Of a stretch of 26,362 bases of DNA, positions 146 to 23,380 are shown piece after piece. Source of the stretch: an uncultured Pseudomonadota bacterium (lineage in GTDB: Bacteria > UBA10199 > CAZHVX01). A model generated the notes under the pieces. It worked only from the letters and a program-made list of their open reading frames with translations, did not search any database and was not told the origin of the DNA. The translations under genes and the position numbers were made by a program. The DNA lies in assembly GCA_964536295.1 (NCBI GenBank), contig CAZHVX010000005.1:1613-27974 (forward strand), written 5' to 3'. The stretch's first letter is position 1. Each line of letters opens with the position of its first letter.

Positions 146-329
146 TAAATAGTGAACTGCTTAGCTAGGGATTGAAACATTGTGGAGGGTATGCCGAGAT
201 ATCCTGCAAACGCAAAAACGCAAAGAATATTTTTCGCGATTTCGCGGTTACAGCACATCCCGCCAGGAGTCTTCCCGACGGTCAATCCAACAAGGAGAAA
301 AAAATCCATAATAAAGGAGGTGAGTGATC

Positions 330-545
330 ATGGCAGTAGAAAAAAATATGGCATCCTCGAGTCTAGTTGAGGTTATCGATCGTATTTTGGACAAGGGCGT
401 TGTAATTGACGCTTGGGCAAGAGTTTCATTGGTCGGTATCGAACTGTTATCCATCGAAGCAAGAATCGTTTTGGCTTCAGTGGAAACATATTTGAAGTAT
501 GCCGAAGCTATTGGCTTAACAGCTTCAGCTGCAACTCCAGCGTAA
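330..545 (+). CDS. gvpA: Gas vesicle structural protein GvpA.
   Basis: The protein [63 protein letters not shown]... carries the canonical GvpA signature ([43 protein letters not shown]). The RBS AGGAGGTG sits 7 nt upstream of ATG 330. The ORF-track start at 324 is a GTG just upstream in the same frame. Confidence 0.92.
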
Positions 546-2439: not shown

Positions 2440-2754
2440 ATGGGGAACTTGAGATGCGCATTTTGCCACGGCTCTGGAAAGGATCCCTTTGAAATATTAT
2501 CTAAGATGTCAACCTGTCAGGTCTGCAACGGCGTAGGCAAGAATAACATTGAGGATCCAACTCGAACGTGCGTCTTTTGTCAGGGAACAGGGGTTCATCC
2601 TTTTTCAAGGCTTTCTTGCACGGTGTGCAAAGGTAAGGGCCAGATTACATCTAAAGGTAAAGGAAAGAAGTGTTCCGATTGTCATGGGACAGGAAAATCT
2701 TTCGGCGAAAATATGCCGTGTTTGACATGTAAGGGAATGGGGGTTCTCAAATGA
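2440..2754 (+). CDS. Small zinc-finger protein made of six CxxCxGxG repeats. This is the DnaJ cysteine-rich-domain motif, here as a stand-alone DnaJ-like zinc-finger protein.
   Basis: The motifs CAFCHGSG, CQVCNGVG, CVFCQGTG, CTVCKGKG, CSDCHGTG and CLTCKGMG are present. The RBS GGAGGGAGG precedes the start. CxxCxGxG is the defining repeat of the DnaJ/Hsp40 CR domain. Confidence 0.7.
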   Translation: MGNLRCAFCHGSGKDPFEILSKMSTCQVCNGVGKNNIEDPTRTCVFCQGTGVHPFSRLSCTVCKGKGQITSKGKGKKCSDCHGTGKSFGENMPCLTCKGMGVLK

Positions 2755-3215
2755 AACCCAAGATTCTCAAAAAAAGCAATGGAAGGGCCACAATTAAGTG
2801 TACCTTTTGTCATGGTAAAGGCACGGATCCCTTTGAGGTTATGTCTAAGCTATCCCGTTGTTCGATTTGTCATGGCAAAGGTGAGGTGATGATCCAAGAA
2901 CCGTTTGCCCCCTGTGCCTATTGTCATGGTACGGGAGTCCACCGGGACAGCCGTATGAGCTGCCTGGTTTGTCATGGCAAAGGGGTTGTGCATATTGATA
3001 GATCATCGAACACCTGTGAACTTTGTGGCGGAACCGGCAGGCAGCCAGGGGAATATCTCCCTTGTCTAATGTGTAAAGGAAAAGGATTTCTTGTTCCGGG
3101 TGAAATTGTGGCCAAGCGAAAAATTAAGAGTACAGACAAAACAAAGAAGCTGGGCAAAAGTGATAGGTTGAAATTGATGAAAAAAAGAGCAACTTTTGTT
3201 AAACGTGAAACCTGA
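2751..3215 (+). CDS. Second stand-alone CxxCxGxG-repeat zinc-finger protein (six repeats) with a K-rich C-terminal tail.
   Basis: The motifs CTFCHGKG, CSICHGKG, CAYCHGTG, CLVCHGKG, CELCGGTG and CLMCKGKG are present. It shares a 4-bp ATGA overlap with the upstream paralog. Confidence 0.7.
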   Translation: MKPKILKKSNGRATIKCTFCHGKGTDPFEVMSKLSRCSICHGKGEVMIQEPFAPCAYCHGTGVHRDSRMSCLVCHGKGVVHIDRSSNTCELCGGTGRQPGEYLPCLMCKGKGFLVPGEIVAKRKIKSTDKTKKLGKSDRLKLMKKRATFVKRET

Positions 3216-3748: not shown

Positions 3749-3845
3749 ATCATGCCTCATGTTTCGTGTTTCATGCTTCATAAAATTAACAATGGTCGCG
3801 GCAACCGTCCGCCGGACGTTTGAAGCGCCCAAAAAGGAGGGTAAA

Positions 3846-4766
3846 ATGGTAGAAGAATTAACAACAGTATTGGAGCCACAATCACTACCTAATTTTGTAG
3901 AGACACCATATGTAAAAGGGGTTACTGAGCGAGCTTTAGACTATATCAAAGCTGGCTTTCCAGTCCATTTTCGTGGCGTCTCCGGCACAGGTAAGACAAC
4001 CTTGGCCATGCATGTCGCTAGTATTCTTGGCAGACCCGTGGTTATGATCCACGGTGATGAGGAATTCTCTACATCAGACCTGGTGGGAGGTGAACATGGC
4101 TACAGCATGCGGAAGGTGGTCGATAATTTTATCCATTCGGTCTTGAAGACACAGGAAGATATGACCAAAAAGTGGGTAGATAACCGCCTGACGGTTGCAT
4201 GTAAATATGGTTTTACATTGATCTATGATGAATTCACGCGGTCCCGTCCAGAGGCAAACAACGTCCTGCTTTCAATCTTGCAAGAAAAGATGATGGACCT
4301 TCCAGCGGCAAGGGAGGGTGGAGAAGGTTACCTGAAGGTAGACCCAAATTTTACCGCCATCTTTACAAGCAACCCCGAGGAATATGCCGGCGTTCATCGT
4401 TCACAGGATGCCCTTCGTGACCGGATGGTAACACTGGATCTAGATTTTTTCGATGAAGAGACAGAGGTAGAAATTACTACGGCCAAATCTGGTTTGATAA
4501 AACCGGATGCAACAAAGATAGTCAGGATCGTTCGTGACCTAAGGGAATCGGGCGTATGCGAATTTGAGCCGACCGTTCGTGGTTGTATCATGATTGCAAA
4601 GACGTTGTCCGTATCGGATGGAAATAAAGCGATTTCAGCTGATAACCGCAGGTTTGTGGCTATAGCTCAAGATATTTTGGCATCAGAGACATCACGAATC
4701 GGCTCTAAGAGCAATGAAAAGAAGGTAAAAGAAGCAATATTAAAAAGTGTTGAAAAGTACTGCTAA
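3846..4766 (+). CDS. gvpN: Gas vesicle AAA+ ATPase GvpN, copy 1.
   Basis: It has the Walker A motif GVSGTGKTT and Walker B motif LIYDEF. Its length and arrangement match GvpN, and it is ~60% identical by eye to the second copy at 5110. The RBS AAAGGAGGG precedes ATG 3846. The ORF-track start at 3759 adds an implausible leader. Confidence 0.9.
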   Translation: MVEELTTVLEPQSLPNFVETPYVKGVTERALDYIKAGFPVHFRGVSGTGKTTLAMHVASILGRPVVMIHGDEEFSTSDLVGGEHGYSMRKVVDNFIHSVLKTQEDMTKKWVDNRLTVACKYGFTLIYDEFTRSRPEANNVLLSILQEKMMDLPAAREGGEGYLKVDPNFTAIFTSNPEEYAGVHRSQDALRDRMVTLDLDFFDEETEVEITTAKSGLIKPDATKIVRIVRDLRESGVCEFEPTVRGCIMIAKTLSVSDGNKAISADNRRFVAIAQDILASETSRIGSKSNEKKVKEAILKSVEKYC

Positions 4767-5109: not shown

Positions 5110-6063
5110 ATGGACTTTTTAGAATCATGTGCTATTCAAATTTCCCCGGATCAACCATCATTTGTTAAATCTCCATATATTGAGGAAATTGTTGGCCGTG
5201 CCATGAACTACATTAAAATTGGGGCACCTGTCCACTTTCAGGGACCGTCCGGTACGGGTAAGACCACATTGGCCATGTACATTGCGGGTAAATTGGGGAA
5301 GCCCACAATACTTATACATGGCGATGAGGAATTTGGCACATCAGATCTGGTTGGGAAAAGCAATGGATATCGTTCCAAACGGGTTTATGACAACTTTATA
5401 CAATCGGTTAAAAAGTTTGATGAAAAGTTCGAATCATCATGGGTTGATAACCGCCTCACCTTGGCCTGCAAACATGGCTGCACTCTTATTTACGATGAAT
5501 TTACTCGTTCGCGACCAGAGGCCAATAATGTCCTTTTATCGGTCCTGGAAGAAAAAATACTTGATATTCCAACTGCTGCTGGTTCCGAAGATGCAAACCT
5601 ACTCCACGTTCATCCGGATTTTACAGTCATTTTTACAAGCAATCCTGAAGAATATGCCGGTGTTCATAAATCGCAGGATGCCTTAAGGGATCGGATGATA
5701 ACGATTAACCTGGATCATTATGACCGGGATTCTGAAATTACTATTACAGAGAAAAAGGCGCAGGTCCCGCGAAAACAGGCCTCGATAATAGTAGATCTGG
5801 TTCGTGATTTTCGAAAAACTGAACAATATAAATTCAGTCCCACGGTGCGCGCTTGCATTATGATTGCAAAAATTTTAAAACTTGGCGGTGCAAAACCAAA
5901 CAGCAAAGACGATTTATTTATGAGGACCTGCTTTGACATCCTTGATCCGGAGACATATCGCGTTGTCGGCACTGGAAAGGAAGAGATGAATAGAAACAAG
6001 GCACGTACAATCATAACGAAGTTGGTGGCAAAACACTGCGATAATGGGGGAAAGACAAAATAA
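5110..6063 (+). CDS. gvpN: Gas vesicle AAA+ ATPase GvpN, copy 2.
   Basis: It has the Walker A motif GPSGTGKTT and is collinear with copy 1 (the motifs NRLT.ACK.G.TLIYDEFTRSRPEANNVLLS and FTSNPEEYAGVH.SQDALRDRM are shared). The RBS AGGAGGTG is present. Confidence 0.9.
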   Translation: MDFLESCAIQISPDQPSFVKSPYIEEIVGRAMNYIKIGAPVHFQGPSGTGKTTLAMYIAGKLGKPTILIHGDEEFGTSDLVGKSNGYRSKRVYDNFIQSVKKFDEKFESSWVDNRLTLACKHGCTLIYDEFTRSRPEANNVLLSVLEEKILDIPTAAGSEDANLLHVHPDFTVIFTSNPEEYAGVHKSQDALRDRMITINLDHYDRDSEITITEKKAQVPRKQASIIVDLVRDFRKTEQYKFSPTVRACIMIAKILKLGGAKPNSKDDLFMRTCFDILDPETYRVVGTGKEEMNRNKARTIITKLVAKHCDNGGKTK

Positions 6064-6524: not shown

Positions 6525-6923
6525 ATGGAAAAACATACCGAAGAATTCACATGGCAACCATATCGACATGCAGGTGGAAAGGCTAGAGTTGGGAAAAAAG
6601 GACAACTATTAAAAGGCTCGACGTTCGATTGCGCCTTTTGTAATGGCACCGGAGAAAAGCCGCGTGGATCAAAGTGTTCAGTTTGTCGGGGCGAAGGAAA
6701 GATAAAGGTTGATCCACCAGCTGTATATTGCGCCTATTGTCATGGACGGGGTGAGACTCCACCACGCAGCAATTGTACCTGTACCGTTTGTCGTGGTAAG
6801 GGCGTGGTAAGTATCCAACAGCCGGTTGAGGCCTGTGCTCATTGTCGTGGAACGGGGGCCGAACCGGGCAACAAACTGCCTTGTTTAAAGTGCCGCGGTA
6901 AGGGTGTTGTAGCGAAGAAATAA
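6525..6923 (+). CDS. Third stand-alone CxxCxGxG-repeat zinc-finger protein (DnaJ CR-like), with an N-terminal extension.
   Basis: The motifs CAFCNGTG, CSVCRGEG, CAYCHGRG, CTVCRGKG, CAHCRGTG and CLKCRGKG are present. The RBS AAAGGAGGG precedes the start. Confidence 0.7.
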   Translation: MEKHTEEFTWQPYRHAGGKARVGKKGQLLKGSTFDCAFCNGTGEKPRGSKCSVCRGEGKIKVDPPAVYCAYCHGRGETPPRSNCTCTVCRGKGVVSIQQPVEACAHCRGTGAEPGNKLPCLKCRGKGVVAKK

Positions 6924-9119: not shown

Positions 9120-11309
9120 GTGGCAGACAAAAAACCAAAGAAATCGCAAAAAGGCACGACAAAAAAGAATGGCCTTCCGCTCAAGGTGGCCGAGGCCTTG
9201 AGTAAAGACGTCGGTCGCGGTATTGCCAGAATTGATCCTGCTTATATGGAAAACCTGGGCGTTTCTATCGGAGATATCGTTCAAATCGATGGGAAGCGTA
9301 AAACTGTTGCCAAGATTATGCCCACATATATGGATGACCGCGGCAAGAAGCTTATACAAATAGACGGTGTTGTCAGGGAAAATGCCAAATCTGGTCTTGA
9401 TGACAGGGTGTTTGTTGACAAGGCATCACATAATCCGGCCAGTCAAATTGTCCTGACTGCGTTGACTGCGGCTCCGGCACGTGGTGAAGATGCCCGTTAT
9501 ATTGGCAGGCTTTTCGAAGGGCTTCCTTTGGTGTCGGGCGATAGGGTAAGGGCCACACTCTTTGGTACACGCTCGCGTGATTTTAAAGTGGTCAGCACCA
9601 GCCCTGAAGGTGTGGTTTTGGTAACACCCACAACAAACATAAAGATCAAGGGTGAAAAGAAGGCTGCAGAGGAAAGGGGACCTCACGAGGTTTCATATGA
9701 AGACGTTGGAGGCTTGGGTAAGGAAATAAATAAGATTCGCGAGATGATCGAACTTCCATTACGGTATCCGCAGGTCTTTGATCGTCTGGGCATTGATCCT
9801 CCAAAGGGCGTGTTATTACACGGACCTCCAGGAACTGGAAAAACTTTAATTGCAAGGGCGGTTGCCCATGAATCGGAGGCAAACTTTTTTTCCGTTAACG
9901 GTCCTGAGATTGTGCATAAATTTTACGGTGAATCAGAGGCGCATCTTCGATCCATTTTTGAAAAGGCGGCGGAGGCGGCTCCTTCAATAATCTTTATTGA
10001 TGAAATAGATGCCATTGCGCCCAAACGTGCCGAGGTGACTGGCGATGTGGAAAAGCGCATCGTTGCTACACTTCTGGCTATGATGGACGGGCTTAAAGGT
10101 CGGGGTCAAGTCATTGTTATTGGCGCCACAAATATTCCAGATGTTATGGATCCGGCGCTTCGTCGTCCGGGCCGTTTTGATCGAGAGATTGTGATCGGTA
10201 TTCCAGACAAGAATGGCCGTGAACAAATTTTAGATATTCACACGCGAGGTATGCCACTGACCGAAGATGTCGACATTGGACATTTTGCGGCAATTACGCA
10301 TGGCTATGTTGGCGCCGATTTGGAAGCGCTTGCTCGTGAAGCAGCTATGATTTCGCTTCGTAAGGTCTTCGATAAGGTGGATTTTAATCTCGATGAAATA
10401 CCTTATGAAACATTGGTTTCTTTGGAAGTCAACATGGATTGTTTTATTCGGGCGCTCAACGAAGTTACACCCTCGGCCATACGCGAGGTCTTTGTAGAGG
10501 TTCCGGATGTTAAGTGGGAAGATGTTGGCGGTCTTGAAGATACGAAAGAGATCCTTAAAGAAACAGTGGAGTGGCCTTTAAAATATGAAAGACTTTTTGC
10601 TCATGCGAACGCCAAGGCGGCCAAAGGTATTTTGTTGGACGGCCCTCCGGGAACGGGTAAGACCTTGCTAGCAAAGGCCCTGGCCAATGAGAGTGAGGTG
10701 AACTTTATCTCCATTAAAGGACCTGAGCTCATAAGTAAATGGGTCGGCGAAAGTGAAAAGGGCGTTCGTGAAATATTCAAAAAAGCCAGACAGGCTGCTC
10801 CTTGCATTTTGTTCTTTGATGAAATCGACAGCATTGCACCAAGACGCGGTGGAGGCGAAGGAGATTCCGGTGTTACCCAAAGGGTTATAAGCCAATTTTT
10901 GACTGAACTCGACGGCCTTGAAGAGTTAAAGGGCGTGGTGATCCTGGGGGCAACCAACCGAAAAGACATCCTTGATCCAGCATTGATTCGTACCGGCAGG
11001 TTTGATTTATCAATAACACTCCCGATACCCGATTTCAAATCCAGAGAGGCAATATTCGAGGTCCATACAAGGAATAAGCCATTGGAGAAAAAGATCAATT
11101 TTAAGGAGATGGCCAGGGCAACTGAAGGTATGGTTGGGTCCGATATCGAGGAAGTGTGCCGGCAGGCTATCATGTTGGCGTTAAGAGAGTTTATCCACAA
11201 ATATGAGGATGACGCCAACAAGGAATGTGAGAAGTTCAAGGTCAAGGCCTCTCATTTTACAGAGGCATTAAAATACATAAAGAAGCAAAAAAGAGGTACA
11301 AGCCAATGA
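9120..11309 (+). CDS. Cdc48/VCP/VAT-type ATPase with two AAA domains and an N-terminal Cdc48-N domain.
   Basis: N-domain: [37 protein letters not shown]1 has Walker A GPPGTGKT, Walker B IIFIDEID and the SRH motif [14 protein letters not shown]2 has [17 protein letters not shown] and [10 protein letters not shown]. The start is GTG with AGGAG 8 nt upstream. Confidence 0.9.
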
Positions 11310-12346
11310 AATATTTTCATGGTATCATAAGTAAGGGGGAGGAAATAAATTTCGGCTCCATTGGATTTCCACTTGCGGATTTTGAAACAAAATTTGGTAA
11401 TGTATTTACAGTTCCCTATGAAAATATGGGGGCAGTAGTCAGCGACATAGACGATATGGATTTTCAAACCCCGGATAAAGAGATGTTGGTACGAAGACTT
11501 TTGGTTCATCAAAAGGTGTTGGAGCATGTTGTTAAAGAAGGTTGTGGAATTTTGCCTGTGAAATTTGGTACGTGTCTAAATGATGTCGATGAGGCCTTGA
11601 AAGTTATGAAGATTGGTTATTTTAAATTCGAAGATGCAAGCAGAAGAATGGGGAAAAAACACGAGCTGGATTTGGTGGTTACATGGGATACTAATAAGAA
11701 GCTTAAAGAGGTAGCCCTGGAAAGTCAGGAAATACAACACTTTAAGCAGAAGATTGAAAAGATGCCAGAATCTAAATCTGCCGCTGAAAAGATGAAGATA
11801 GGGATGATGCTTCAAAAAGAGCTTCATCACGTCCGGGACGGAATTTCACGTGAGATTTTGTCGACCCTGGTTGATATTACCAAGAGTCGATCGGACCACG
11901 AGCTTATGGATGATAATATGGTAATTAATTCATCTTTTCTTTTGAATGACATGGAGGAAAAGACATTTGATAAAATATTGGCTGGGCTGGATTCCAGGTT
12001 TAACGGCGAATTGAATTTTAAATGTTTAACACCACTACCACCATATAGTTTTGCTACTGTTGAAATCAAAACGATAGAATTTGAAGAAATAGAAAAGGCC
12101 TGGAACTTGTTTGATTTTGGGAAAAAGACAACACTTAATGAAATTAAGGAAGTTAATCGGAAACTAACCAAGGAATGGCATCCTGATAAAAGGCCAGGGG
12201 ATCATGAGGCCCAGATCAAATTTGAAGGCCTGAACACCTCATATAAAACACTTTTGGATTATTGTGAAAGTGGGAAGGCCTCCCTTCCCAAAAAGGGCGA
12301 GAAGTTTTTTAAAGTAAATGTCGTTAAGGCAGAGGAGATGTTATGA
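11306..12346 (+). CDS. gvpF: GvpF/GvpL-family protein fused to a C-terminal J-domain (DnaJ-type, HPD motif).
   Basis: The N-terminus and core (YFHGIIS...AVVSD..., LVHQKVLEHV, LPVKFGT, and C-terminal LNFKCLTPLPPYSF) are collinear with the GvpF paralogs at 12343 and 13201. The C-terminal 75 aa, NEIKEVNRKLTKEWHPDKRPGDHEAQIKFEGLNTSYKTLLDY, carries the J-domain HPD tripeptide. There is a 4-bp overlap with the upstream cdc48-like gene. Confidence 0.8.
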   Translation: MKYFHGIISKGEEINFGSIGFPLADFETKFGNVFTVPYENMGAVVSDIDDMDFQTPDKEMLVRRLLVHQKVLEHVVKEGCGILPVKFGTCLNDVDEALKVMKIGYFKFEDASRRMGKKHELDLVVTWDTNKKLKEVALESQEIQHFKQKIEKMPESKSAAEKMKIGMMLQKELHHVRDGISREILSTLVDITKSRSDHELMDDNMVINSSFLLNDMEEKTFDKILAGLDSRFNGELNFKCLTPLPPYSFATVEIKTIEFEEIEKAWNLFDFGKKTTLNEIKEVNRKLTKEWHPDKRPGDHEAQIKFEGLNTSYKTLLDYCESGKASLPKKGEKFFKVNVVKAEEML

Positions 12347-13092
12347 CTACAGAAGGCAAGTATATATATTGCATCATCGGAACCAGTGATCCAAGGCACT
12401 TTGGTCCCATCGGCATCGGTGAACGGAACGATGAGGTGACTACAATTGGTGCCAGGGATATCTCTGCCATTGTCAGCAATACTCCGATGGAAAAGTATGT
12501 TGTCAGTAGAGAAAATCTAACTGCCCATGAAAAGATAATTGAAAAGGTGATGTCAGAATATACGGTGTTACCCGTCCGCTTTTGTACCGTTGCTACCAGT
12601 ACGCAGGAGGTGATGGATTGCTTGAAGAGGCGTTATCCCGAGTTCAAAAACCTGCTAAGAGATATGGATAACAAGGTAGAAGTTGGTTTGAAGGTAGTTT
12701 GGAATGACATGCAAACGGTGTTCGATGAACTTGTAGCTGAAAATGATGATATAAGACAGATGAAAGAAGCTGGCAAAATAAAGAAACGTAATGATTTAAT
12801 AAATGCTGGTAAAATTGTCGAAGCCATCTTGGAAGAGAAAAGAAGTATGGAGGAGGGAAGATTATTTCGTGACTTAAAGAAGGTTGCATCAGATTTTAAG
12901 AGTGCCAAGCGACATGGTGATAATATGTTGACCAATGCTGCGTTTCTGCTCGATAAGGGACGGCAGCGAGCATTTGATAATCAAGTAGAAACTTTGGTGG
13001 AGGAGAATAAGGATCGATTTACGGTTAATTATGTCGGTCCGGCACCTCCGTTTAATTTTGTAAACATTGAGATAAAATTTGCAGGGGAATAA
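12343..13092 (+). CDS. gvpF: Gas vesicle protein GvpF/L family.
   Basis: The N-terminus KYIYCIIG... and the C-terminal VGPAPPFNFV are typical GvpF features. There is a 4-bp overlap with the upstream gene. Confidence 0.85.
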   Translation: MTTEGKYIYCIIGTSDPRHFGPIGIGERNDEVTTIGARDISAIVSNTPMEKYVVSRENLTAHEKIIEKVMSEYTVLPVRFCTVATSTQEVMDCLKRRYPEFKNLLRDMDNKVEVGLKVVWNDMQTVFDELVAENDDIRQMKEAGKIKKRNDLINAGKIVEAILEEKRSMEEGRLFRDLKKVASDFKSAKRHGDNMLTNAAFLLDKGRQRAFDNQVETLVEENKDRFTVNYVGPAPPFNFVNIEIKFAGE

Positions 13093-15112: not shown

Positions 15113-17089
15113 ATGGAGAATAAAAAATCTCCATCCTTTTTGACTAATGGTCAAAAAAGACTGATATTTTTTGGTGGCAAAGGCGGCGTGGGTAAAACCA
15201 CCACCGCCGCCGCGTCAGCCATTTTTATAGCCAGGCAATTTCCTCAAAAAAAGGTTCTTGTTCTCTCCACCGATCCCGCACATTCCTTGTCCGATTGTTT
15301 TGAGATATTGCTTAATGATGAGGTTTCTTCGATAAATGGGTTGTCGAACCTCTTTGCTAGAGAATTAGATGCTGCTCGTTTATTAGATGCGTTCAAAGAT
15401 AAGAATGAAAAGATTATCAAGGTGTTGGCCGAAAGGGGAACCTATTTTGATAATGAGGATATTGAAAGTTTCTTTTCTTTATCACTCCCCGGTATGGATG
15501 AAGTAATGGCGGTTATAGAGATATATAATCTTTTTGTAAAAGGTGAGTATGAAACGATTATTATCGATACCGCGCCTACCGGCCATACTATGAGACTGCT
15601 TTTACTTCCTAACCAACTGGAGCAATGGATAGATCTTTTTAACTTGATGCAAGAAAAGCATCGGATCATGACTCGCCGTTTTTCCGGAAGATATGCGCCT
15701 GATGAGGCAGATAAATTTCTTGAAGATTTGACTCATGACCTGAAAGAAATGAGGAGCCTGCTTTCCAATCCTGCTATTACGGAGTTTGTTCCAATCACCA
15801 TCCCTGAGAAAATGAGCTTTAATGAAACGTGTAGACTTCTTGGGGTCTTGAGAGATTGTCATATGCCGGTAAGGAATATTATTGTTAACAACGTGATAAA
15901 GTCTGAGTCTTGTGAATATTGCCAAAAACAATATGAGGCACAAAAATCTGCCATAGAAAAAATCAGGAATTTATTTAAAGATTTTAATATAATGCACATG
16001 CCGCTATATCCGAAGGAGGTGCGGGGAGTCAATGCGCTCAGCGAATTTGCAGGCAGTTTAGTGGGTGAAGAAGTAAACTTTCAAGGGATGGTTCATAGGT
16101 CCAAAAGGAGTGATGGTGATCAACGTATCAAACTTGAACGTTTTCTAAACGACGATTTACAGATGTTGCTTGTTGGAGGCAAAGGAGGAGTTGGAAAGAC
16201 ATCAATTGCAACTGCACTTGCATTAAAGTTTTCCGGGAAATATCCAGATAAAAAAGTCTTACTTTTTTCTACCGATCCTGCCCATTCCTTGTCGGATAGC
16301 CTTGGGCAAGAAATAGGGAATAAAGTAACACAAGTCCAGGCAAGGCCTCTTGCTTCAAATTTATTTGCCATCGAAATCAATGCTGAAAAACTATTTGATG
16401 ATTTCGCAAAAAAATACAAAAGAGAAATAGATGATGTATTTGATGGTTTTTTCAATAGCTCATCTACAGCGGGAATGGATTTTAGCTACGATCGAAGTCT
16501 GATGAAAAAACTTATAAACGTATCGCCTCCTGGACTGGATGAATTGATGGCCTTAAAGGAAATCATGAATTACATAGATAAAGATACATACGATTTCTAC
16601 ATCTTGGATACCGCTCCAACTGGGCATTTGCTACGTTTTTTGGAGCTGCCTTCATTGGTACAAGGCTGGCTGAAGGCAATCTTTAGGCTTTTGATTAAAT
16701 ATGAAGGTATGGTGAATTTGAACAGTGTGGCAGAAAAGATGGTGGAACTTTCAAAGAGTGTAAAGCGGATCAAGGCGATCCTTTGCGATTCCAAAAGGGC
16801 CAAATTTCTTGCAGTTACTATTCCTGAAGCAATGGGGTTTGAAGAGACAAAAAGGCTTGTGGATTCACTTCACAATTTGGATATAGCGTGCACGGGTCTT
16901 GTCATTAATAAAATTTTCCCCAGTGTAAAGTGTGGCTTTTGTGGAATAAAAAGGGACGAACAATTAGAATATGCTAAAAAGATAGAGAAGAAACTTAATA
17001 TAAAACATGTTGCCCGCGTACCTCTGTTTCCATCAGAGATCGTGGGGGTTGAAAAATTAACAAAGTTTGGAGACAGAGCTTTTTATTAG
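15113..17089 (+). CDS. Fused tandem ArsA/Get3-family ATPase (two complete ArsA-like halves).
   Basis: There are two deviant Walker A P-loops (GGKGGVGKTTTAA and GGKGGVGKTSIAT). There are two STDPAHSLSD motifs. Two A-loop or signature motifs, DTAPTGHT(M/L)R(L/F)L, are present. The fused-dimer architecture is typical of ArsA and Get3 anion-pump or tail-anchored targeting ATPases. Confidence 0.85.
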   Translation: MENKKSPSFLTNGQKRLIFFGGKGGVGKTTTAAASAIFIARQFPQKKVLVLSTDPAHSLSDCFEILLNDEVSSINGLSNLFARELDAARLLDAFKDKNEKIIKVLAERGTYFDNEDIESFFSLSLPGMDEVMAVIEIYNLFVKGEYETIIIDTAPTGHTMRLLLLPNQLEQWIDLFNLMQEKHRIMTRRFSGRYAPDEADKFLEDLTHDLKEMRSLLSNPAITEFVPITIPEKMSFNETCRLLGVLRDCHMPVRNIIVNNVIKSESCEYCQKQYEAQKSAIEKIRNLFKDFNIMHMPLYPKEVRGVNALSEFAGSLVGEEVNFQGMVHRSKRSDGDQRIKLERFLNDDLQMLLVGGKGGVGKTSIATALALKFSGKYPDKKVLLFSTDPAHSLSDSLGQEIGNKVTQVQARPLASNLFAIEINAEKLFDDFAKKYKREIDDVFDGFFNSSSTAGMDFSYDRSLMKKLINVSPPGLDELMALKEIMNYIDKDTYDFYILDTAPTGHLLRFLELPSLVQGWLKAIFRLLIKYEGMVNLNSVAEKMVELSKSVKRIKAILCDSKRAKFLAVTIPEAMGFEETKRLVDSLHNLDIACTGLVINKIFPSVKCGFCGIKRDEQLEYAKKIEKKLNIKHVARVPLFPSEIVGVEKLTKFGDRAFY

Positions 17090-17214
17090 TGCAAAAGTGT
17101 TTAAGTGTATAAGTGTATGAGTATATAAGTGTAGAAGTTGAAGTAATTGAAATTTCTATAATCTAACTTAAAAACTCATACACTTAAACACTTATGGACT
17201 TAAGGGAGGTATTT
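17090..17214 (+). promoter_or_regulatory. Intergenic module 3. An octamer array (GTGTTTAA GTGTATAA GTGTATGA GTATATAA GTGTAGAA) is followed by the conserved core AGTTGAAGTAATTGAAATTTCTATAATCTAACTTAAAAACTCATACAC, with TATAAT at 17156-17161, and then reverse octamers. Candidate gvpJ-K-L promoter or operator.
   Basis: The core is near-identical to module 2. It sits immediately upstream of gvpJ. Confidence 0.55.
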
Positions 17215-17571
17215 ATGACATTAGAAGCCAGGCGAGAAGGGTCAGATAGCCTTGCCGATGCAATCGATCGTATATTGGATAAGGGATTAATTATTAATGC
17301 CGATATTCAGGTATCTTTGGCAGGCGTGGAGCTCTTAGGAATAAAGATACGTGCGGCGCTGGCGTCCTTTGAGACGGCGGCCAAGTATGGCCTGGAATTT
17401 CCGTCAGGTACATCTATCGAAGGACCTGCTTGGGAAGAAGCAAAGATACCAAAGGAAGCATGCCCGCAGTGTGAAAAGCGCGTGCCAACTGAGCATCTTA
17501 TGAATGGAGGTTGTCCGTGGTGTGGTTGGATTAGCGCAAAGGCACTTAAAGCAACACCTGAGGCTAAGTGA
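17215..17571 (+). CDS. gvpJ: Gas vesicle protein GvpJ (GvpA-family core with a C-terminal Cys-rich extension).
   Basis: The segment [49 protein letters not shown] is the GvpA/J/M-family core. The RBS AAGGGAGGT precedes ATG 17215. The C-terminal CPQC...CPWC forms a putative Zn-ribbon. Confidence 0.85.
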   Translation: MTLEARREGSDSLADAIDRILDKGLIINADIQVSLAGVELLGIKIRAALASFETAAKYGLEFPSGTSIEGPAWEEAKIPKEACPQCEKRVPTEHLMNGGCPWCGWISAKALKATPEAK

Positions 17572-17885
17572 TGCCAATAAATATAGATGAAAAAAATCTA
17601 AAGCATGGTCTCTTAGGTTTGGTGCTAGCCTTGGTGGAAATCATAAGAGATACGTTAAAGATCCAGGCTACAAAAAGAATGGATGGAAAAAGTCTTACCG
17701 AGGAAGAGATCGAACGGTTAGGGCGGGCCTTGATGGAGTTGGATGTGGCCATCGAACAAATGAAGGAAGACCAAGGCGTTTCTGAGGCAGTAGCTTCCGT
17801 CCGTGACGGACTGGACGACATTGTTAATGATGCAATTCATACAATTATTAATCCAGTTGAAGGGAGGCAAATTGATAAATCCTAA
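17568..17885 (+). CDS. gvpK: Gas vesicle protein GvpK.
   Basis: The motif LKHGLLGLVLALVEIIRDTLKIQATKRMDGKSLTEEEIERLGRAL is the conserved GvpK pattern. There is a 4-bp overlap with gvpJ. Confidence 0.85.
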   Translation: MMPINIDEKNLKHGLLGLVLALVEIIRDTLKIQATKRMDGKSLTEEEIERLGRALMELDVAIEQMKEDQGVSEAVASVRDGLDDIVNDAIHTIINPVEGRQIDKS

Positions 17886-18651
17886 AGTTGCAAAATATCT
17901 CTATTGTATTGTCGACGCGAGTGAAGAGGTTAATTTGGGCAACGTTGGTATTGAAAGAGGTGAGGTTTATACAATTGTTTACAAAGATATCGCAGCAATA
18001 GCGCACGATTGTCATCCTGAGCCTTATCAATCGGATGATAAGCAGGTGGTAGAGAGCTGGGTCAAATCTCATCAAGCGGTCATTGATCTATGCTGGGAGC
18101 GATTTGGTACAATACTGCCTTTTGGATTCGATACCATAATCCAGGGGAGTGAAGAAAGAAATCCTCTTGAAAACACAAAAAAATGGATTAGCGATGATCA
18201 TGATAAGTTAAAGGGACAAATTGAGAAGCTTCGTGGAAAGGCGGAATATGGGATTCAGATTTCCTGGGATCCAAAAATTATCATAAATGAATTTTGCAAA
18301 ACCAACAAAGAGATTAAAGCCTTGGAAAAAGAGATATCTACAAAATTAGAAGGTGCGGCATATATGTATAGGCAAAAGCTGGAGGGGTTGTTTCGCAGCG
18401 AATTGGAGAAAAAGGCAAATGAGTTTTTTAAAGAAGCATTCGATAATTTTAAGGTCTATCTGAAAGATGTCAAAGTAGAAAAGGTCAAGAAAATGGATGA
18501 CGGTAGGCAGATGCTGATGAACCTTTCGTGTCTTTTAGAAAAGGGTGAAACTAAAGATCTTGGGGACGAATTGGAGAAAATTGATAAGCGGGAAGGCTTC
18601 TTTGTGAAATTTACCGGCCCATGGCCACCTTATTCTTTCGTAAGTGCATAA
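17872..18651 (+). CDS. gvpL: Gas vesicle protein GvpL/GvpF family.
   Basis: The N-terminus AKYLYCIVD... and the C-terminal FTGPWPPYSFV are GvpF/L hallmarks. The start is taken as TTG 17872, preceded by GAAGGGAGG 5 nt upstream. The ATG at 17803 is an alternative in-frame start that would overlap gvpK by 83 nt. Confidence 0.75.
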   Translation: MINPKVAKYLYCIVDASEEVNLGNVGIERGEVYTIVYKDIAAIAHDCHPEPYQSDDKQVVESWVKSHQAVIDLCWERFGTILPFGFDTIIQGSEERNPLENTKKWISDDHDKLKGQIEKLRGKAEYGIQISWDPKIIINEFCKTNKEIKALEKEISTKLEGAAYMYRQKLEGLFRSELEKKANEFFKEAFDNFKVYLKDVKVEKVKKMDDGRQMLMNLSCLLEKGETKDLGDELEKIDKREGFFVKFTGPWPPYSFVSA

Positions 18652-18682
18652 GTGTATGAGTGTATGAGTTGGAGAGTTGAAT
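18640..18682 (+). promoter_or_regulatory. Intergenic module 4 (short): GTGCATAA GTGTATGA GTGTATGA GTTGGAGA octamer units upstream of the four-helix-bundle gene.
   Basis: The GTGTATRA unit family is the same as in modules 1 to 3. Confidence 0.45.
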
Positions 18683-19048
18683 ATGAAAATAGAGAGATTT
18701 GAAGAATTAGATTGCTGGAAGGCAGCACGGGAACTAGTGACAATAGTTTACAAACTTACACGAGAGAAAATGTTTAGTAGGGATTTTGGATTGAGGGATC
18801 AAATTCAAAAAGCTGCTATTTCAACAATGGCAAATATCGCCGAGGGGTTTGCTGCCAATTCGGATAGGGAATTCATTAGATTCCTAGGATATGCAAGTCG
18901 TTCTGCTATTGAAGTTCAATCACATTTATATGCTACCCTCGATTTAGAATATATAGAGCATGATCAATTTGATAAGGCCTTCAATAAGGCTCAAGATTGT
19001 ACAAATTTATGTAGAGGTTTAATTCGATATTTAAAAACAAAAACTTAA
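18683..19048 (+). CDS. Four-helix-bundle protein of the '23S rRNA intervening-sequence / S23 ribosomal protein' family.
   Basis: The protein MKIERFEELDCWKAARELVTIVYKLTREK...RDQIQKAAISTMANIAEGFAANSDREFIRFLGYASRSAIEVQSHLY is the characteristic pattern of this small, widely scattered family (..W..A..L...IY.LT..FP..E...L..QL.RAA.SI..NIAEG....S..E...FL..A.GS..E....L). The assignment is motif-based. Confidence 0.6.
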   Translation: MKIERFEELDCWKAARELVTIVYKLTREKMFSRDFGLRDQIQKAAISTMANIAEGFAANSDREFIRFLGYASRSAIEVQSHLYATLDLEYIEHDQFDKAFNKAQDCTNLCRGLIRYLKTKT

Positions 19049-19096: not shown

Positions 19097-19369
19097 ATGG
19101 AACCAACAAGAAACGGTAGAGCGACATTAGTAGACCTTCTTGACAGGGTGTTGGACAAGGGGTTGGTTATCAACGCCGATATCATCATCTCCTTGGCCGG
19201 TGTGCCCTTAATTGGCGTGAACTTGCGGGCAGCGCTGGCGGGCATGGAGACTATGGTTAAATATGGAATGATGCGCGATTATGATCTCAAGTCACGCAAG
19301 TGGGAGAGCGAAAAACGTCGCGAAGAAGAAAAAAAGAAAATAACACCACAGCCATTGGTGCAAAAGTAA
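19097..19369 (+). CDS. gvpM: Gas vesicle protein GvpM/GvpJ-type (GvpA family).
   Basis: The segment TLVDLLDRVLDKGLVINADIIISLAGVPLIGVNLRAALAGMETMVKYGMM is the GvpA-family core. The C-terminal tail is basic and acidic. Confidence 0.8.
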   Translation: MEPTRNGRATLVDLLDRVLDKGLVINADIIISLAGVPLIGVNLRAALAGMETMVKYGMMRDYDLKSRKWESEKRREEEKKKITPQPLVQK

Positions 19370-19568: not shown

Positions 19569-19952
19569 ATGGCGAGGATTCCTTCAAAAAGTGGGCTGGA
19601 TACATTAAAGGTGCGCAGGGAGCCAAGGCTCGTTAATAACGAACCGGTCCTTTTGTGGCAACAAGGTTCTTACGATTGCGGCAGCTCCTTATCGTCAAGC
19701 TGGAAGCTGGGATTTATATGCTTAACAAAGAATAACATATACTTCCTCCAGGGAAAGCGATGTGTCCTGGAGATAGACTCTCAGCAGATAAGAGAAATTA
19801 CTATTCTAAAAAGAAGTTGGGTCTTGGGGAAGGTGATTGATCAATTGTTTATTAGGATCGTAGACGCAATACAAAGGACAAAGAAATATTACTTTGGTGT
19901 CGATAAACCTGAAAGGTGGAAAGAGGCAATCGAGGGGGTAATAGATGGCTAA
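19569..19952 (+). CDS. Bacterial PH/GRAM-like domain protein, translationally coupled to the DnaK-like gene by an 8-bp overlap.
   Basis: The segment PVLLWQQGSYDCG...WKLGFICLTKNNIYFL resembles the N-terminal PH/GRAM-like module of 21678-22550 (EKVILKSKGGLNDG..WRMGEICLTNERLLFL). It is shared by two proteins flanking dnaK. Confidence 0.5.
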   Translation: MARIPSKSGLDTLKVRREPRLVNNEPVLLWQQGSYDCGSSLSSSWKLGFICLTKNNIYFLQGKRCVLEIDSQQIREITILKRSWVLGKVIDQLFIRIVDAIQRTKKYYFGVDKPERWKEAIEGVIDG

Positions 19953-21681
19953 AGTCATAGGTATAGACCTAGGGACAACGTATTCAGTAATGGCTTACTT
20001 GGATAACGGTAAGGCGAAGATCATCCCTAACGCCGAAAAAGAGCACCTAACTCCTTCTGTGGTGGGCTTTGATGCCTTGGAACACGCCTTTGTTGGGGAT
20101 CTTGCCAGGCGCCAATCTGCCATTCATCCCGATCGAACGGTTGCATCCATCAAACGAAAGATGGGAACTAACCATCGTGTAAAAATAGGATCGAAAGAAT
20201 ATTCGCCTCAAGAAATCTCGGCGTTTATACTCAAAAAACTAAAAAGGGATGCAGAAAAATATCTTGGCGACGAAGTCAAGCAAGCTGTGATTACAGTTCC
20301 AGCATATTTTAACGATTCACAACGTCAAGCTACCAAAGATGCAGGAAAGATTGCAGGGCTAGAAGTGCTGCGTATAATCAACGAACCAACGGCAGCATCA
20401 TTGGCTTATGGTCTTGGCCACGGCGGAACACAAACCGTTTTGGTGTGGGACTTAGGAGGTGGAACATTTGATGTTTCCATACTGGAAATTGGCGAAGGGG
20501 TGTTCGAAGTTAAATCAACTTGTGGAAATACACAGTTGGGTGGTGACGATTGGACGGAACGGATTGCCGATTTTGCCATAAAAGAATTTGAATCGAAACA
20601 TGGCGCCTTTCCCAAAGATAACCTGATTGCAATGCAAAGGGTAATAAATGCTGCGGAAGAGGTCAAAATAAAAATTTCTCATGCAAGGGAAGTGAATATA
20701 AACGTACCGTTCATATCTAACAATGGAGATAAACCAGAGCATTTGGATTGTAATCTTTCCAGAGAAGTTTATGAAGACTTTACCGCTGATCTTTTGGAGA
20801 AGCTGATTGGTCCTACCAGGCGAGCTTTAGAAGATGCCGGGCTTACGCCGGAAAAAATAAACCACGCGGTTTTGGTTGGCGGCTCTACCAGGATGCCTGC
20901 GGTTCAAGCTAAAGTCGCTGAACTGATGAGCAAACAGCCTTTTAAAGGTGTAAACCCAGATGAGGTGGTTGCCATTGGTGCGGCAATTCAGGCCGGGGTC
21001 TTAACCGGAGAGGTGACCGATGTAGTCTTGGTGGACGTTGTTCCACTTTCATTAGGGATTGAGACACTCGGCGGTATATTTGCCAAAATAATGAGTCGCA
21101 ATACCACCGTTCCTACTTCCAAGAGCCAGATATTTACAACTTCGGCAGACAATCAAATCGAAGTCGATATCCACATCCTTCAAGGTGAACGTGAGCTGGT
21201 TGCAAATAATACTTCATTAGGCAATTTTAAACTGGTGGACGTTTCACCTGAAGCTCGGGGCGTTCCTAAAATTGAAGTGACCTTTGATGTTGATGCCGAT
21301 GGTATTCTAAGCGTTTCTGCAAAAGATCTATATACAGAGAATGAACAACGAATTCAAATTAGCTCACCAACGGCATTATCTTCTGAAGAAGTGGAACAAA
21401 TGGTTACGGAAGCCAAGTCACATGCCGAAGATGATCGCAAAAAACGAGAGGAAATAGAACTTACTATCAAGGCAGACAATGTTGTTTATGCCGCATTGGA
21501 AACAATGGAAGAAAAAGGCGATTTGTTTGACAAGGTTGAATTGAAACAGGCAAATACGTTGGTGAATAAAATAAAAGCAGCCTTGAAAGAAAACAACTGC
21601 GAACCTTTACCAAGTTTGATGGAAGAGTTAAGGGTGTTGATGGAAACCGTGTGCAACAAAAAAACTAAGGAAAAGGTATGA
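19945..21681 (+). CDS. dnaK: Hsp70/DnaK-family chaperone, a short paralog of 578 aa.
   Basis: The Hsp70 signature motifs IGIDLGTTYS, DLGGGTFDVS and VVLVDVVPLSLGIETLGG (substrate-binding domain) are present. It lacks roughly 50 to 60 C-terminal residues, including the lid end, compared with canonical DnaK. Confidence 0.9.
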   Translation: MAKVIGIDLGTTYSVMAYLDNGKAKIIPNAEKEHLTPSVVGFDALEHAFVGDLARRQSAIHPDRTVASIKRKMGTNHRVKIGSKEYSPQEISAFILKKLKRDAEKYLGDEVKQAVITVPAYFNDSQRQATKDAGKIAGLEVLRIINEPTAASLAYGLGHGGTQTVLVWDLGGGTFDVSILEIGEGVFEVKSTCGNTQLGGDDWTERIADFAIKEFESKHGAFPKDNLIAMQRVINAAEEVKIKISHAREVNINVPFISNNGDKPEHLDCNLSREVYEDFTADLLEKLIGPTRRALEDAGLTPEKINHAVLVGGSTRMPAVQAKVAELMSKQPFKGVNPDEVVAIGAAIQAGVLTGEVTDVVLVDVVPLSLGIETLGGIFAKIMSRNTTVPTSKSQIFTTSADNQIEVDIHILQGERELVANNTSLGNFKLVDVSPEARGVPKIEVTFDVDADGILSVSAKDLYTENEQRIQISSPTALSSEEVEQMVTEAKSHAEDDRKKREEIELTIKADNVVYAALETMEEKGDLFDKVELKQANTLVNKIKAALKENNCEPLPSLMEELRVLMETVCNKKTKEKV

Positions 21682-22550
21682 AAAAAGTAGCATTAAATCC
21701 CAATGAAAAAGTAATCCTCAAAAGCAAAGGCGGCCTAAACGATGGTAGTCAGTCACGTTGGCGAATGGGAGAAATTTGTCTTACAAACGAGAGGCTTTTA
21801 TTTCTCCAACCCTTTGGAATTACTTGTGAAATAGCATTATCCTCGATGGACGAAGTGGGTGTGGAGAAAAAGGACTATGCCTTCGGTCAGAAAAATGCGT
21901 TGTTCTTGAAATATAAGCACAATAATGAGGGCAATGATAAGCATGGCACAATTTGGGTAGTTACGCCAGAGCTGGATAGGTGGAAGGAAAAGCTTTGTGG
22001 TTGGATGCTGATTCAAGTGACTGAAGAAGATTTGGGCAAGGTCTGTGAAAAATTAGATCCGGACTCGGAACGAATTGTTTGGCACTTTTGGGAGGTATCG
22101 CACGCTCGCATCGATGAGCTGGCAACTCTCATTGGTGCTTCGGCGCATATGGATGTGCTCATAAAGATAAGGAACGAGATCAACAAGGTTGCCAGTGAAA
22201 TATTAGGATATCCGTTATTGACATTTGATGTATCCAAAAAAGATCCGGAAACCGAAAAGGATGTTACCTATAGTTGGTGGCTGATAGGCCGTGGCGGTAG
22301 GACAATATCCAAAGAGACTTTTTGCGATGTGTTTGACGAGGGAAAACAATTGGTGGTGGTGGTTGAATTGCTTGGCGTTGATGATAAAGACCTCGATCTT
22401 CAAATAGATCAAAAACGTATTCGGATCAACAATTCAAGTAATGGGAATTGTGAAAAGGAGGTATTCTTGCCCGTCGAAATTGTAGTCGATAAGATCCAGC
22501 AACGTTTTAATAATGGGATTTTGGAAATCAGGGCAACAAAAAGGGGCTGA
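21678..22550 (+). CDS. Two-domain protein: an N-terminal bacterial PH/GRAM-like domain and a C-terminal Hsp20/alpha-crystallin-like domain.
   Basis: The N-terminus parallels 19569-19952. The C-terminal segment QLVVVVELLGVDDKDLDLQIDQKRIRINN...VFLPVEIVVDKIQQRFNNGILEIRATK resembles an alpha-crystallin beta-sandwich. There is a 4-bp overlap with dnaK. Confidence 0.55.
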   Translation: MKKVALNPNEKVILKSKGGLNDGSQSRWRMGEICLTNERLLFLQPFGITCEIALSSMDEVGVEKKDYAFGQKNALFLKYKHNNEGNDKHGTIWVVTPELDRWKEKLCGWMLIQVTEEDLGKVCEKLDPDSERIVWHFWEVSHARIDELATLIGASAHMDVLIKIRNEINKVASEILGYPLLTFDVSKKDPETEKDVTYSWWLIGRGGRTISKETFCDVFDEGKQLVVVVELLGVDDKDLDLQIDQKRIRINNSSNGNCEKEVFLPVEIVVDKIQQRFNNGILEIRATKRG

Positions 22551-22657: not shown

Positions 22658-23380
22658 ATGAAAGATTATTACGAAATATTGGAGGTGCATCCACGAGCTA
22701 GCCAGGAGGTTATCAAAAAGGCCTATCTGGTTTTGTCCAAGCGTTATCACCCGGATGCCCATGACAGTGAAAGGGCTGGCTGGGCCGAGGAAAAGTTCAA
22801 GGTGATAAATGAGGCCTTTCAGACATTGGGTGATTTAGTTAAGCGCAAGGGGTATGATTTGGATCGAGAGGGTAGCGATGATTATGAATACTGCGAGGAA
22901 GAAGAAGTTGAAATCGATGAGAAGGCATATTTTCACTATCGCTTAGGGTTAGATCATTTTGAAAAAACGGATAAAAGAAGATTCATGTCGGTATTGCTGG
23001 GTAGTTGGCAACGAAACTTGAAGTTGGCTCAAAAATATTTTTTAAAGGTTGTTCGTACATTCCCTACTAGTTATTATACTGACCAATCTCAGTATCATTA
23101 TATAGTATGCTTGATGCGTGAGTATGATTACTCAGAAAAACATGCACAATTGGTAGAAAAAGAGACAGAAATGTTTTTAAAATGTTATCCGGAAAGTGAA
23201 TGTAGAGACATTTTTTACTATCAACTAGGTCAGTTTTATTTGTTAAAGCGACAAGACTATAATAAAGCCATTGAAAACTTGAAGCTATTTTTGGCAGCCT
23301 GTCCTGAATCCTCTAATGCAAAGGATGCAAGATGTTTGCTAAAGTATACTATCAGTCGTCAGTCATCAGCTGACAGCTGA
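22658..23380 (+). CDS. J-domain protein (N-terminal DnaJ J-domain with HPD motif) with a C-terminal helical, TPR-like region.
   Basis: The segment DYYEILEVHPRASQEVIKKAYLVLSKRYHPDAH...KFKVINEAFQTLGD is a canonical J-domain. The remainder is helical with Y/L/K-rich repeats resembling TPR. Confidence 0.75.
   Translation: MKDYYEILEVHPRASQEVIKKAYLVLSKRYHPDAHDSERAGWAEEKFKVINEAFQTLGDLVKRKGYDLDREGSDDYEYCEEEEVEIDEKAYFHYRLGLDHFEKTDKRRFMSVLLGSWQRNLKLAQKYFLKVVRTFPTSYYTDQSQYHYIVCLMREYDYSEKHAQLVEKETEMFLKCYPESECRDIFYYQLGQFYLLKRQDYNKAIENLKLFLAACPESSNAKDARCLLKYTISRQSSADS

Follow-up and report, generated by a model that had tools for sequence, protein, structure and literature searches.

A gas vesicle GvpF protein with a C-terminal J-domain, encoded in a chaperone-rich gvp cluster

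Here we describe a gas vesicle protein gene in a 26,362-nucleotide stretch of DNA (contig CAZHVX010000005.1; hereafter the window) from an uncultured Pseudomonadota bacterium, the product of which joins a GvpF-type body to a C-terminal J-domain with an intact HPD motif. Both parts of this GvpF-J fusion (FJ) score above curated profile cutoffs, the C-terminal module is predicted to fold as a J-domain, and copies of the fusion occur in no fewer than 80 species-level genomes and, with sequences grouped at 50% identity, in no fewer than 139 clusters. We consider it reasonably probable that FJ is a class C, client-specific J-domain protein by which shell protein bound to GvpF is coupled to DnaK, and the building of gas vesicles in FJ-bearing bacteria probably uses the Hsp70 machinery directly. 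Additionally, FJ belongs to a type of gvp cluster rich in chaperones, which also encodes a small heat-shock protein (sHsp), a CDC48-type AAA+ ATPase, an ArsA/Get3 ATPase, DnaJ-type zinc-finger proteins and DnaK.

How the extremely hydrophobic GvpA stays soluble and enters the growing gas vesicle is an open question, and the idea that GvpF acts as a GvpA chaperone (Iburg et al. 2024) has been based on interaction screens alone. A GvpF subfamily with a conserved J-domain, an intact HPD and often its own DnaK nearby is independent evolutionary evidence for that idea, and the fusion would represent a new family of client-specific J-domain proteins. The findings also suggest, for acoustic-reporter engineering, that clusters which do not assemble in E. 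coli may need a matched set of Hsp70 and J-protein.

The fusion gene and its two domains

The features of the fusion gene are as follows.

11306-12346, plus strand: FJ, the GvpF-J fusion gene, 346 aa
11306-12055, plus strand: GvpF-type body, aa 1-250; PF06386; ends at LTPLPPYSF
12080-12268, plus strand: J-domain helices I-III, aa 259-321; PF00226 and AlphaFold2 module model
12155-12157, plus strand: Asn284 at the DnaJ Tyr25 position in helix II, an unusual substitution in the window copy
12179-12187, plus strand: HPD motif, H292-P293-D294, between helices II and III
12305-12325, plus strand: terminal β-strand FFKVNVV, aa 334-340, assigned by DSSP; it stands in the place of helix IV

The initial annotation, made from the sequence, had placed a GvpF/L paralogue with a C-terminal J-domain and an intact HPD at 11306-12346, as the first of four GvpF/L-family genes; the open reading frame (ORF) proved exact, the other three genes start at 12343, 13201 and 17803, and both Pfam assignments exceed their curated cutoffs. 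PF06386 (GvpL_GvpF) covers aa 31-250 with 143.1 bits (E = 2e-41; gathering cutoff 23.6), and PF00226 (DnaJ) covers aa 273-318 with 36.8 bits (E = 4.2e-9, whole protein; cutoff 27.8), rising to 40.2 bits against the same cutoff when the tail is scored by itself; the PF00226 match is partial, extending over profile positions 10-55 of 63. The body ends at LTPLPPYSF (aa 241-249), as had been annotated, and the string quoted from the tail, NEIKEVNRKLTKEWHPDKRPGDHEAQIKFEGLNTSYKTLL, is present in the translation; the extension had been put at about 85 residues and in fact continues for 97 residues past PPYSF. The start codon of FJ overlaps the stop codon of the upstream CDC48 gene by 4 bp (ATGA, 11306-11309), and its end overlaps the start of the next gvpF gene in the same manner (ATGA, 12343-12346), an arrangement that suggests translational coupling.

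Against the NCBIfam GvpF and GvpL models (NF052351 and NF045778), FJ scored 78 with a cutoff of 350 for GvpF and 45.9 with a cutoff of 200 for GvpL. The body is GvpF-like rather than GvpL-like, yet well under both equivalog cutoffs, and forms a distinct subfamily.

A PDB sequence search with the last 93 residues retrieved J-domain proteins exclusively. E. coli DnaJ aligns to the tail over residues 10-60, without gaps at least from residue 17 to 59, and DnaJ K26, R27, H33, P34, D35, F47, Y54 and L57 are each identical or conservatively replaced in FJ. No Pfam hits were obtained in FJ for the CXXCXGXG zinc finger (PF00684) or the C-terminal client-binding domains (PF01556), and it has no glycine/phenylalanine-rich (G/F) region; DnaJ equivalog models gave 18-30 bits against cutoffs above 330, and the HscB models TIGR00714 and NF003449 were not among the FJ matches in the NCBIfam scan. 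Lacking the domains of class A and B DnaJ proteins, FJ therefore has a class C (type III) architecture. The J-domain assignment itself is far beyond chance, because 81 of 82 orthologues from other genomes retain the HPD.

Predicted structure

AlphaFold2 (AF2) models were built for full-length FJ and, separately, for aa 251-346 from a 49-sequence alignment, and secondary structure was assigned with DSSP. In the full-length model (mean predicted local distance difference test score, pLDDT, 80), the body matched GvpF crystal structures by Foldseek (6l5d_B, E = 9.3e-12, TM-score on target 0.79; 4qsg, E = 3.4e-10), and the tail fits solved J-domains, including the DnaK-bound DnaJ J-domain 5nro_B, at about 2.1-2.4 Å over 59-60 columns. 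The aa 251-346 model (pLDDT 86.5) consists of a strand (252-257), helix I (259-268), helix II (277-291), the HPD, helix III (300-320) and a second strand (334-339), with helix I packed on the antiparallel hairpin of helices II and III. Its top 50 PDB fold matches are all J-domains, with root-mean-square deviations of 1.3-2.5 Å over about 55-60 columns, which are core-length matches. The superposition on J-domains expected from the initial annotation was thus obtained; that annotation had recognized helix II, the HPD loop and helix III, all of which are there, and had not mentioned helix I, which is also present.

In the models strand 252-257 of the GvpF body appears to be the partner of the terminal strand; strands 252-257 and 334-339 most likely pair because DSSP gives them as the sole two β-strands of the module. 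With this pairing, the J-domain would form an excursion of three helices, clamped onto the GvpF C-terminal sheet at its last strand. The hydrophobic columns 335-339 of the terminal strand are conserved in the family alignment.

Many family members also carry a conserved cysteine pair, 'Y-C ... C-S-F', between helix III and the terminal strand (aa 319-327 of the window protein, nt 12260-12286). The window FJ keeps the first cysteine (C320) only, and Ala and Leu replace the Cys and Phe of the family.

Distribution, conservation and origin of the family

A scan of GTDB, with one genome per species, returned 187 relatives, and the best 80 of these 187 are all full-length fusions. ORFs were called in 82 loci, and the family alignment comprises 82 proteins; locus counts for the fusion family come from FJ-bearing loci only. 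The fusion was found in 81 of the 82 loci, with a length of 319-435 aa. The metagenome-assembled genomes (MAGs) that bear it are labelled as Chloroflexota (Anaerolineae, Dehalococcoidia and Ktedonobacteria), Nitrospirota, Omnitrophota, Desulfobacterota, Planctomycetota, Verrucomicrobiota, Actinomycetota, Bacillota, Acidobacteriota, Gemmatimonadota, NC10, Zixibacteria, Bipolaricaulia, Alpha- and Gammaproteobacteria, and others. No homologue in the GTDB species set was more than 39% identical to the FJ of the window. Furthermore, an exhaustive HMMER search of 1.84 billion representative sequences gave 703 matches at E <= 1e-30, the best 150 of which all have E <= 2e-68. All source annotations in the family are automatic, and read 'Chaperone protein DnaJ', 'GvpL/GvpF family gas vesicle protein' or 'DnaJ-domain-containing protein 1'.

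Conservation in the tail follows that of J-domains. Within the family alignment H292 is kept in 81 of 82 members and P293 and D294 in all 82, and HPD was present in the tail of 139 of 148 new representatives (50% identity), so that retention across sets is about 94-99%. The helix II/III core residues K281, A283, Y284, L287, F306, A312, Y313 and L316 correspond to the standard J-domain consensus in the 82-protein alignment; the basic residues of helix II and the F47 equivalent are conserved, and the linker strand, J-domain and terminal strand are kept in register across the family.

In a neighbour-joining tree of the bodies only, all FJ proteins form one clade, apart from the clade of the second and third GvpF paralogues and from that of the GvpL-like fourth paralogue; the fusion therefore arose once. 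Among the closest unfused matches, P0063-P0066 were considered as candidates for an FJ orthologue without the J-domain and were rejected, as they are the neighbouring GvpF paralogues of FJ-containing clusters.

Locus L054 (9995-11059) carries an orphan FJ copy outside any gvp cluster. Its sequence SQPDAHPDD has QPD at the canonical motif and, four residues further on, a second HPD, and a tandem HPDAHPD is seen in related copies from Dehalococcoidia. Dictyobacter sp. S3.2.2.5 (GCA_036245075.1), a cultured Ktedonobacteria isolate, encodes FJ at L083 8162-9151 on the minus strand, in a gvp cluster with ArsA, CDC48 and Hsp20 and with no DnaK within 20 kb, and is a possible experimental model.

The gvp cluster of the window

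The cluster spans about 324-23380, and the same gene order returns in other loci. It begins with gvpA, two zinc-finger proteins, two GvpN-like AAA_5 ATPases, a third zinc-finger protein, GvpO, Hsp20 and CDC48, continues with FJ, two GvpF paralogues, GvpG, a two-domain ArsA/Get3 ATPase, a GvpA-family gene, GvpK and a GvpL-like gene, and ends with a 23S rRNA IVP gene, a second GvpA-family gene at 19097, a 127-aa protein, DnaK, a 290-aa protein and a J-domain protein with TPR repeats (DnaJ-TPR).

324-545, plus strand: gvpA, major shell protein, 73 aa, the presumed client; phmmer against the GvpA-family proteins of the window, E = 6.7e-15
2440-2754 (104 aa) and 2751-3215 (154 aa), plus strand, and 6525-6923 (132 aa): zinc-finger proteins, PF00684
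8547-9110, plus strand: Hsp20 small heat-shock protein
9120-11309, plus strand: CDC48-family double AAA+ ATPase; TIGR01243, 952 bits against a cutoff of 803
12343-13092, plus strand: unfused GvpF paralogue 2, Pfam 201 bits
13201-13959, plus strand: unfused GvpF paralogue 3, Pfam 211 bits
14062-14427, plus strand: GvpG; PF05120, E = 4e-20
15113-17089, plus strand: two-domain ArsA/Get3-family ATPase
17803-18651, plus strand: GvpL-like paralogue 4; NCBIfam GvpL, 188.6 bits
19945-21681, plus strand: cluster DnaK, 578 aa, short form, the presumed Hsp70 partner
21678-22550, plus strand: DnaK partner gene, 290 aa, with a C-terminal α-crystallin (Hsp20-like) domain; NF041800, E = 4e-15
22658-23380, plus strand: DnaJ-TPR, J-domain plus TPR/BamD-like repeats, 240 aa, last gene of the cluster; Pfam DnaJ 74.2 bits, positions 1-63

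Several of these genes have unusual features. The three small zinc-finger proteins consist nearly entirely of DnaJ-type CXXCXGXG repeats, and similar genes occur in most related loci; the cluster thereby encodes parts of DnaJ on separate polypeptides, as zinc-finger proteins and as a J-domain on GvpF. GvpN-like AAA_5 ATPase genes stand in tandem (3759-4766 and 5110-6063, about 340 nt apart), where a single gvpN is usual. The CDC48/VAT-type double-ring AAA+ protein, here in a bacterial gvp cluster, has N-terminal CDC48_N and CDC48_2 domains. Also, the GvpA-family protein at 17194-17571 (125 aa) has a C-terminal CxxC...CxxC extension, CPQCEKRVPTEHLMNGGCPWCG, possibly a zinc ribbon on a shell-protein homologue. 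The 23S rRNA IVP gene (18677-19048; PF05635, E = 1e-29) lies inside the gvp cluster between the GvpL-like and GvpA-family genes; L086 has this insertion as well, and L005 and L029 contain IVP-like ORFs. The 290-aa protein has an N-terminal 'GEICLT..LLFLQ' motif that is shared by the 127-aa protein (19569-19952) just before DnaK and may be PH/GRAM-like.

Neighbours were counted in loci with enough sequence, and a full-flank set (n = 24) comprised those with at least 8 kb on each side. In 32 of 62 loci CDC48 lies directly upstream, its stop codon often overlapping the start codon of FJ, and in 63 of 72 an unfused GvpF/L paralogue lies directly downstream. Within the full-flank set, CDC48 and Hsp20 were each present in 20 loci, Hsp70 (DnaK) in 15 and ArsA in 10; CDC48 is the most constant neighbour of FJ. 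A dnaK gene would by chance lie within 10 kb of a given gene in about 1% of genomes by our own estimate, and the 15 of 24 loci therefore represent a strong association. In seven loci from Anaerolineae/Anaerolineales, DnaK and FJ are immediate neighbours, separated by -2 to -46 nt. When all ORFs of the loci were scanned with a J-domain profile, FJ was the sole nearby J-domain ORF in 23 of 24 DnaK-bearing loci, the exception being L065, where a different 87-aa J-domain ORF occupies a position like that of DnaJ-TPR. An apparent 1002-aa Hsp70-FJ polypeptide in L007 (1-3009) was rejected as an artefact, since its two parts are joined only by masked N positions read as X.

The cluster DnaK

The initial annotation had also named a DnaK paralogue at 19945, and this is a genuine, canonical DnaK: its NF001413 score of 778 bits passes the cutoff of 648, and its identity to Geobacillus DnaK is 58.5%. 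The RIINEPTAA and FEV segments are retained, as is a hydrophobic linker between the domains; we take these to correspond to E. coli R167, E217 and L391-392. Its closest relatives among 5.8 billion proteins are short DnaKs of 583-586 aa with 59-61% identity; they come from Actinomycetota MAGs, including Ca. Hakubella thermalkaliphila. In the three nearest relatives (L086-L088) the gene occupies the same slot in a gvp cluster, preceded by a GvpA-family gene and followed by a homologue of the 290-aa gene, and the pair of DnaK followed by the 290-aa gene is kept in L086-L088 and 13 FJ loci.

A single dedicated clade of cluster Hsp70s was not supported, with 44-55% identity across phyla as compared to 54-61% to Geobacillus DnaK; the cluster Hsp70s also differ in an insertion of about 24 aa in the nucleotide-binding domain, present in some and absent in others. 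That they are not one clade suggests repeated recruitment of DnaK genes to the cluster, and linkage to gvp clusters is demonstrable only for the short-DnaK subgroup of the window.

Proposed function and alternative explanations

In haloarchaea, GvpF is the sole accessory protein that binds GvpA, by way of GvpA's N-terminal half (PMC7688916), and work on the B. megaterium system, where GvpF is GvpA2's primary partner and gives way to GvpG, explicitly proposed that GvpF chaperones GvpA2 (PMC11445434). With a GvpF body and a J-domain, FJ combines a client-binding with an Hsp70-activating module and is therefore proposed to present shell protein to DnaK. The GvpF body would bind hydrophobic GvpA, or its relatives GvpJ/M, and the J-domain, held against the GvpF C-terminal sheet by the terminal β-strand, would dock on ATP-bound DnaK. 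Docking would trigger ATP hydrolysis via the HPD, so that DnaK clamps the GvpF-bound client; DnaK might then hold the client in soluble form for delivery to the growing vesicle, or free it from GvpF for recycling. The Hsp70 would be the cluster-encoded DnaK where one exists (here 19945-21681) and presumably the housekeeping DnaK elsewhere. In this manner FJ may recruit and activate DnaK at the nascent vesicle.

Several observations weigh against this proposal. Residue 284 of the window FJ is Asn where 78 of the 82 family members have Tyr. DnaJ-TPR, with a complete J-domain and its HPD, is a second J-protein beside the DnaK of the window, and could be an alternative or additional co-chaperone. 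Helix IV is missing, with coil and then a β-strand after helix III; the four-helix fold looked for in the initial annotation is accordingly realized only in part, as three helices and a strand, with the DnaK-contacting core of helix II, HPD and helix III intact apart from Asn284. There is no Hsp70 within 10 kb in 9 of the 24 full-flank loci, and the partner therefore need not be cluster-encoded; the DnaK-linkage counts pertain to FJ-bearing gvp clusters alone, and no GrpE-type exchange factor was seen in any cluster. Some members have lost the HPD and kept the fold, namely P0055 (HGP), P0228 and L054 (QPD), and P0296, P0334-6 and P0341 (degenerate), and the module may therefore also have an HPD-independent structural role. 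Moreover, the binding of GvpA by FJ, the stimulation of DnaK and the direction of client hand-over are steps that we infer.

One alternative is that the J-domain of the window FJ is weakened or mainly structural, with DnaJ-TPR, two genes after DnaK, as the true DnaK activator and FJ keeping its GvpF role. DnaJ Y25 is among the J-domain residues that touch DnaK R167, E217, L391 and L392 (PMC13012618; numbering checked against PMC4063869). The equivalent position is Tyr in 78, Phe in 2 and Asn in 1 of the proteins of the family alignment, and Tyr in 107, His in 15, Phe in 12 and Asn in 3 in an independent set; among the DnaK-contact positions of the window protein, K26 (R285) and F47 (F306) are conserved and Y25 (N284) is not. 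The window FJ also departs from the family consensus at R266W, L269F, G270D and A283V, its J-domain scores lower than that of DnaJ-TPR (36.8 versus 74.2 bits), and the HPD-less members indicate that the fold can outlast the motif. On the other side, HPD, R285/K286, F306, Y313 and L316 are intact, Asn at position 284 also occurs in 3 of 139 other HPD-bearing members, several J-proteins per Hsp70 are the norm, and no DnaJ-TPR homologue was found in the 81 other loci, while FJ is universal; the ancestral system therefore worked with FJ alone. We judge this explanation improbable. It is likewise quite unlikely, in our estimation, that the J-domain joins DnaK to the upstream CDC48 in a bi-chaperone machine likened to DnaK-ClpB, which would extract or disaggregate mis-assembled or aggregated GvpA with the GvpF body as targeting adaptor. 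Such a machine, which is compatible with FJ presenting shell protein to DnaK, would account for the position of CDC48 (directly upstream in the 32 loci noted above, with the ATGA overlap in the window, and commoner than DnaK in the full-flank set) and for the frequent Hsp20 holdases, which are partners of DnaK and ClpB in known systems. But the adjacency may reflect operon order alone, FJ loci without CDC48 nearby exist (e.g. L008 and L029), and to our knowledge no interaction is known between J-domains or DnaK and bacterial CDC48-type ATPases. Finally, an artefact, whether a frameshift or assembly error merging gvpF with a small J-protein gene or a chance DnaJ match, could have been suspected from the partial PF00226 match and its modest score; it is refuted by an architecture, order and length shared by 81 independent loci and by no fewer than 139 representative clusters, by tail elements conserved in register and by a confidently predicted structure.

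Presentation of GvpF-bound shell protein to DnaK by FJ thus remains the explanation that we favor. A more ambitious version, which we put forward tentatively and regard as rather doubtful, is that shell growth is Hsp70-driven, with FJ coupling the DnaK ATP cycle to the handling or insertion of GvpA within a dedicated proteostasis set encoded in the same operon. The set would consist of the sHsp holdases, the PH-like/α-crystallin protein, the zinc fingers of a 'DnaJ in pieces', the CDC48-type unfoldase and the Get3/ArsA-type ATPase. If true, one protein organelle would have a complete chaperone pathway dedicated to its client.

Comparison with known systems

FJ shares with cyanobacterial GvpF (Microcystis, 4QSG; Anabaena, 6L5D) and haloarchaeal GvpF the two-domain α+β body, PF06386 and a PPYSF-type motif, and like them it sits in a gvp cluster with gvpG nearby. 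Known GvpFs stop a few residues past the last β-strand, whereas FJ adds 97 residues that contain the J-domain and an extra strand. The cluster of the window is of the same type as the ArsA/Hsp20 gvp clusters, with several GvpF/L paralogues, Hsp20 and a two-domain ArsA homologue, described by Castillo and Saier in 2010 (PMC2963123), and hsp20 was reported in the Hakubella gvp cluster in 2020 (PMC7325909); neither paper mentions DnaK, J-domain, CDC48 or zinc-finger proteins in gvp clusters. Full-text searches of the literature on gas vesicles with J-domain, Hsp70 or CDC48 proteins turned up no account of the fusion, and the GvpF-J architecture, while in sequence databases, appears never to have been analysed so far.

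Helices I-III and the HPD loop of FJ superpose on the J-domain of E. coli DnaJ (1XBL; 5NRO chain B) at 2.4 Å over 60 columns, with a TM-score on target of 0.80. Unlike that of DnaJ, which is N-terminal, the FJ J-domain is C-terminal, and FJ is without helix IV, the G/F region, the zinc-finger domain and the C-terminal client-binding domains; DnaJ Tyr25 is replaced by Asn in the window protein.

Other J-proteins act on self-assembling lattices or organelles and recruit Hsp70 for their remodelling or assembly, such as auxilin with Hsc70 in clathrin uncoating and TopJ at the Mycoplasma terminal organelle. Their targeting domains are unrelated to that of FJ; any likeness would be a functional analogy only. 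In the NCBIfam scan, TopJ models were matched by DnaJ-TPR of the window. In Fe-S cluster assembly, the class C J-protein HscB has a client-specific domain, and one operon encodes it together with HscA, a dedicated Hsp70 paralogue, and IscU, the client. There is no homology between FJ and HscB beyond the J-domain, the cluster Hsp70 is DnaK rather than HscA, and many FJ loci have no dedicated Hsp70. As in the HscB/HscA system, though, FJ, a gvp-linked DnaK lineage and gvpA stand in one cluster, and HscB/HscA with IscU is most plausibly the closest functional analogue of FJ.

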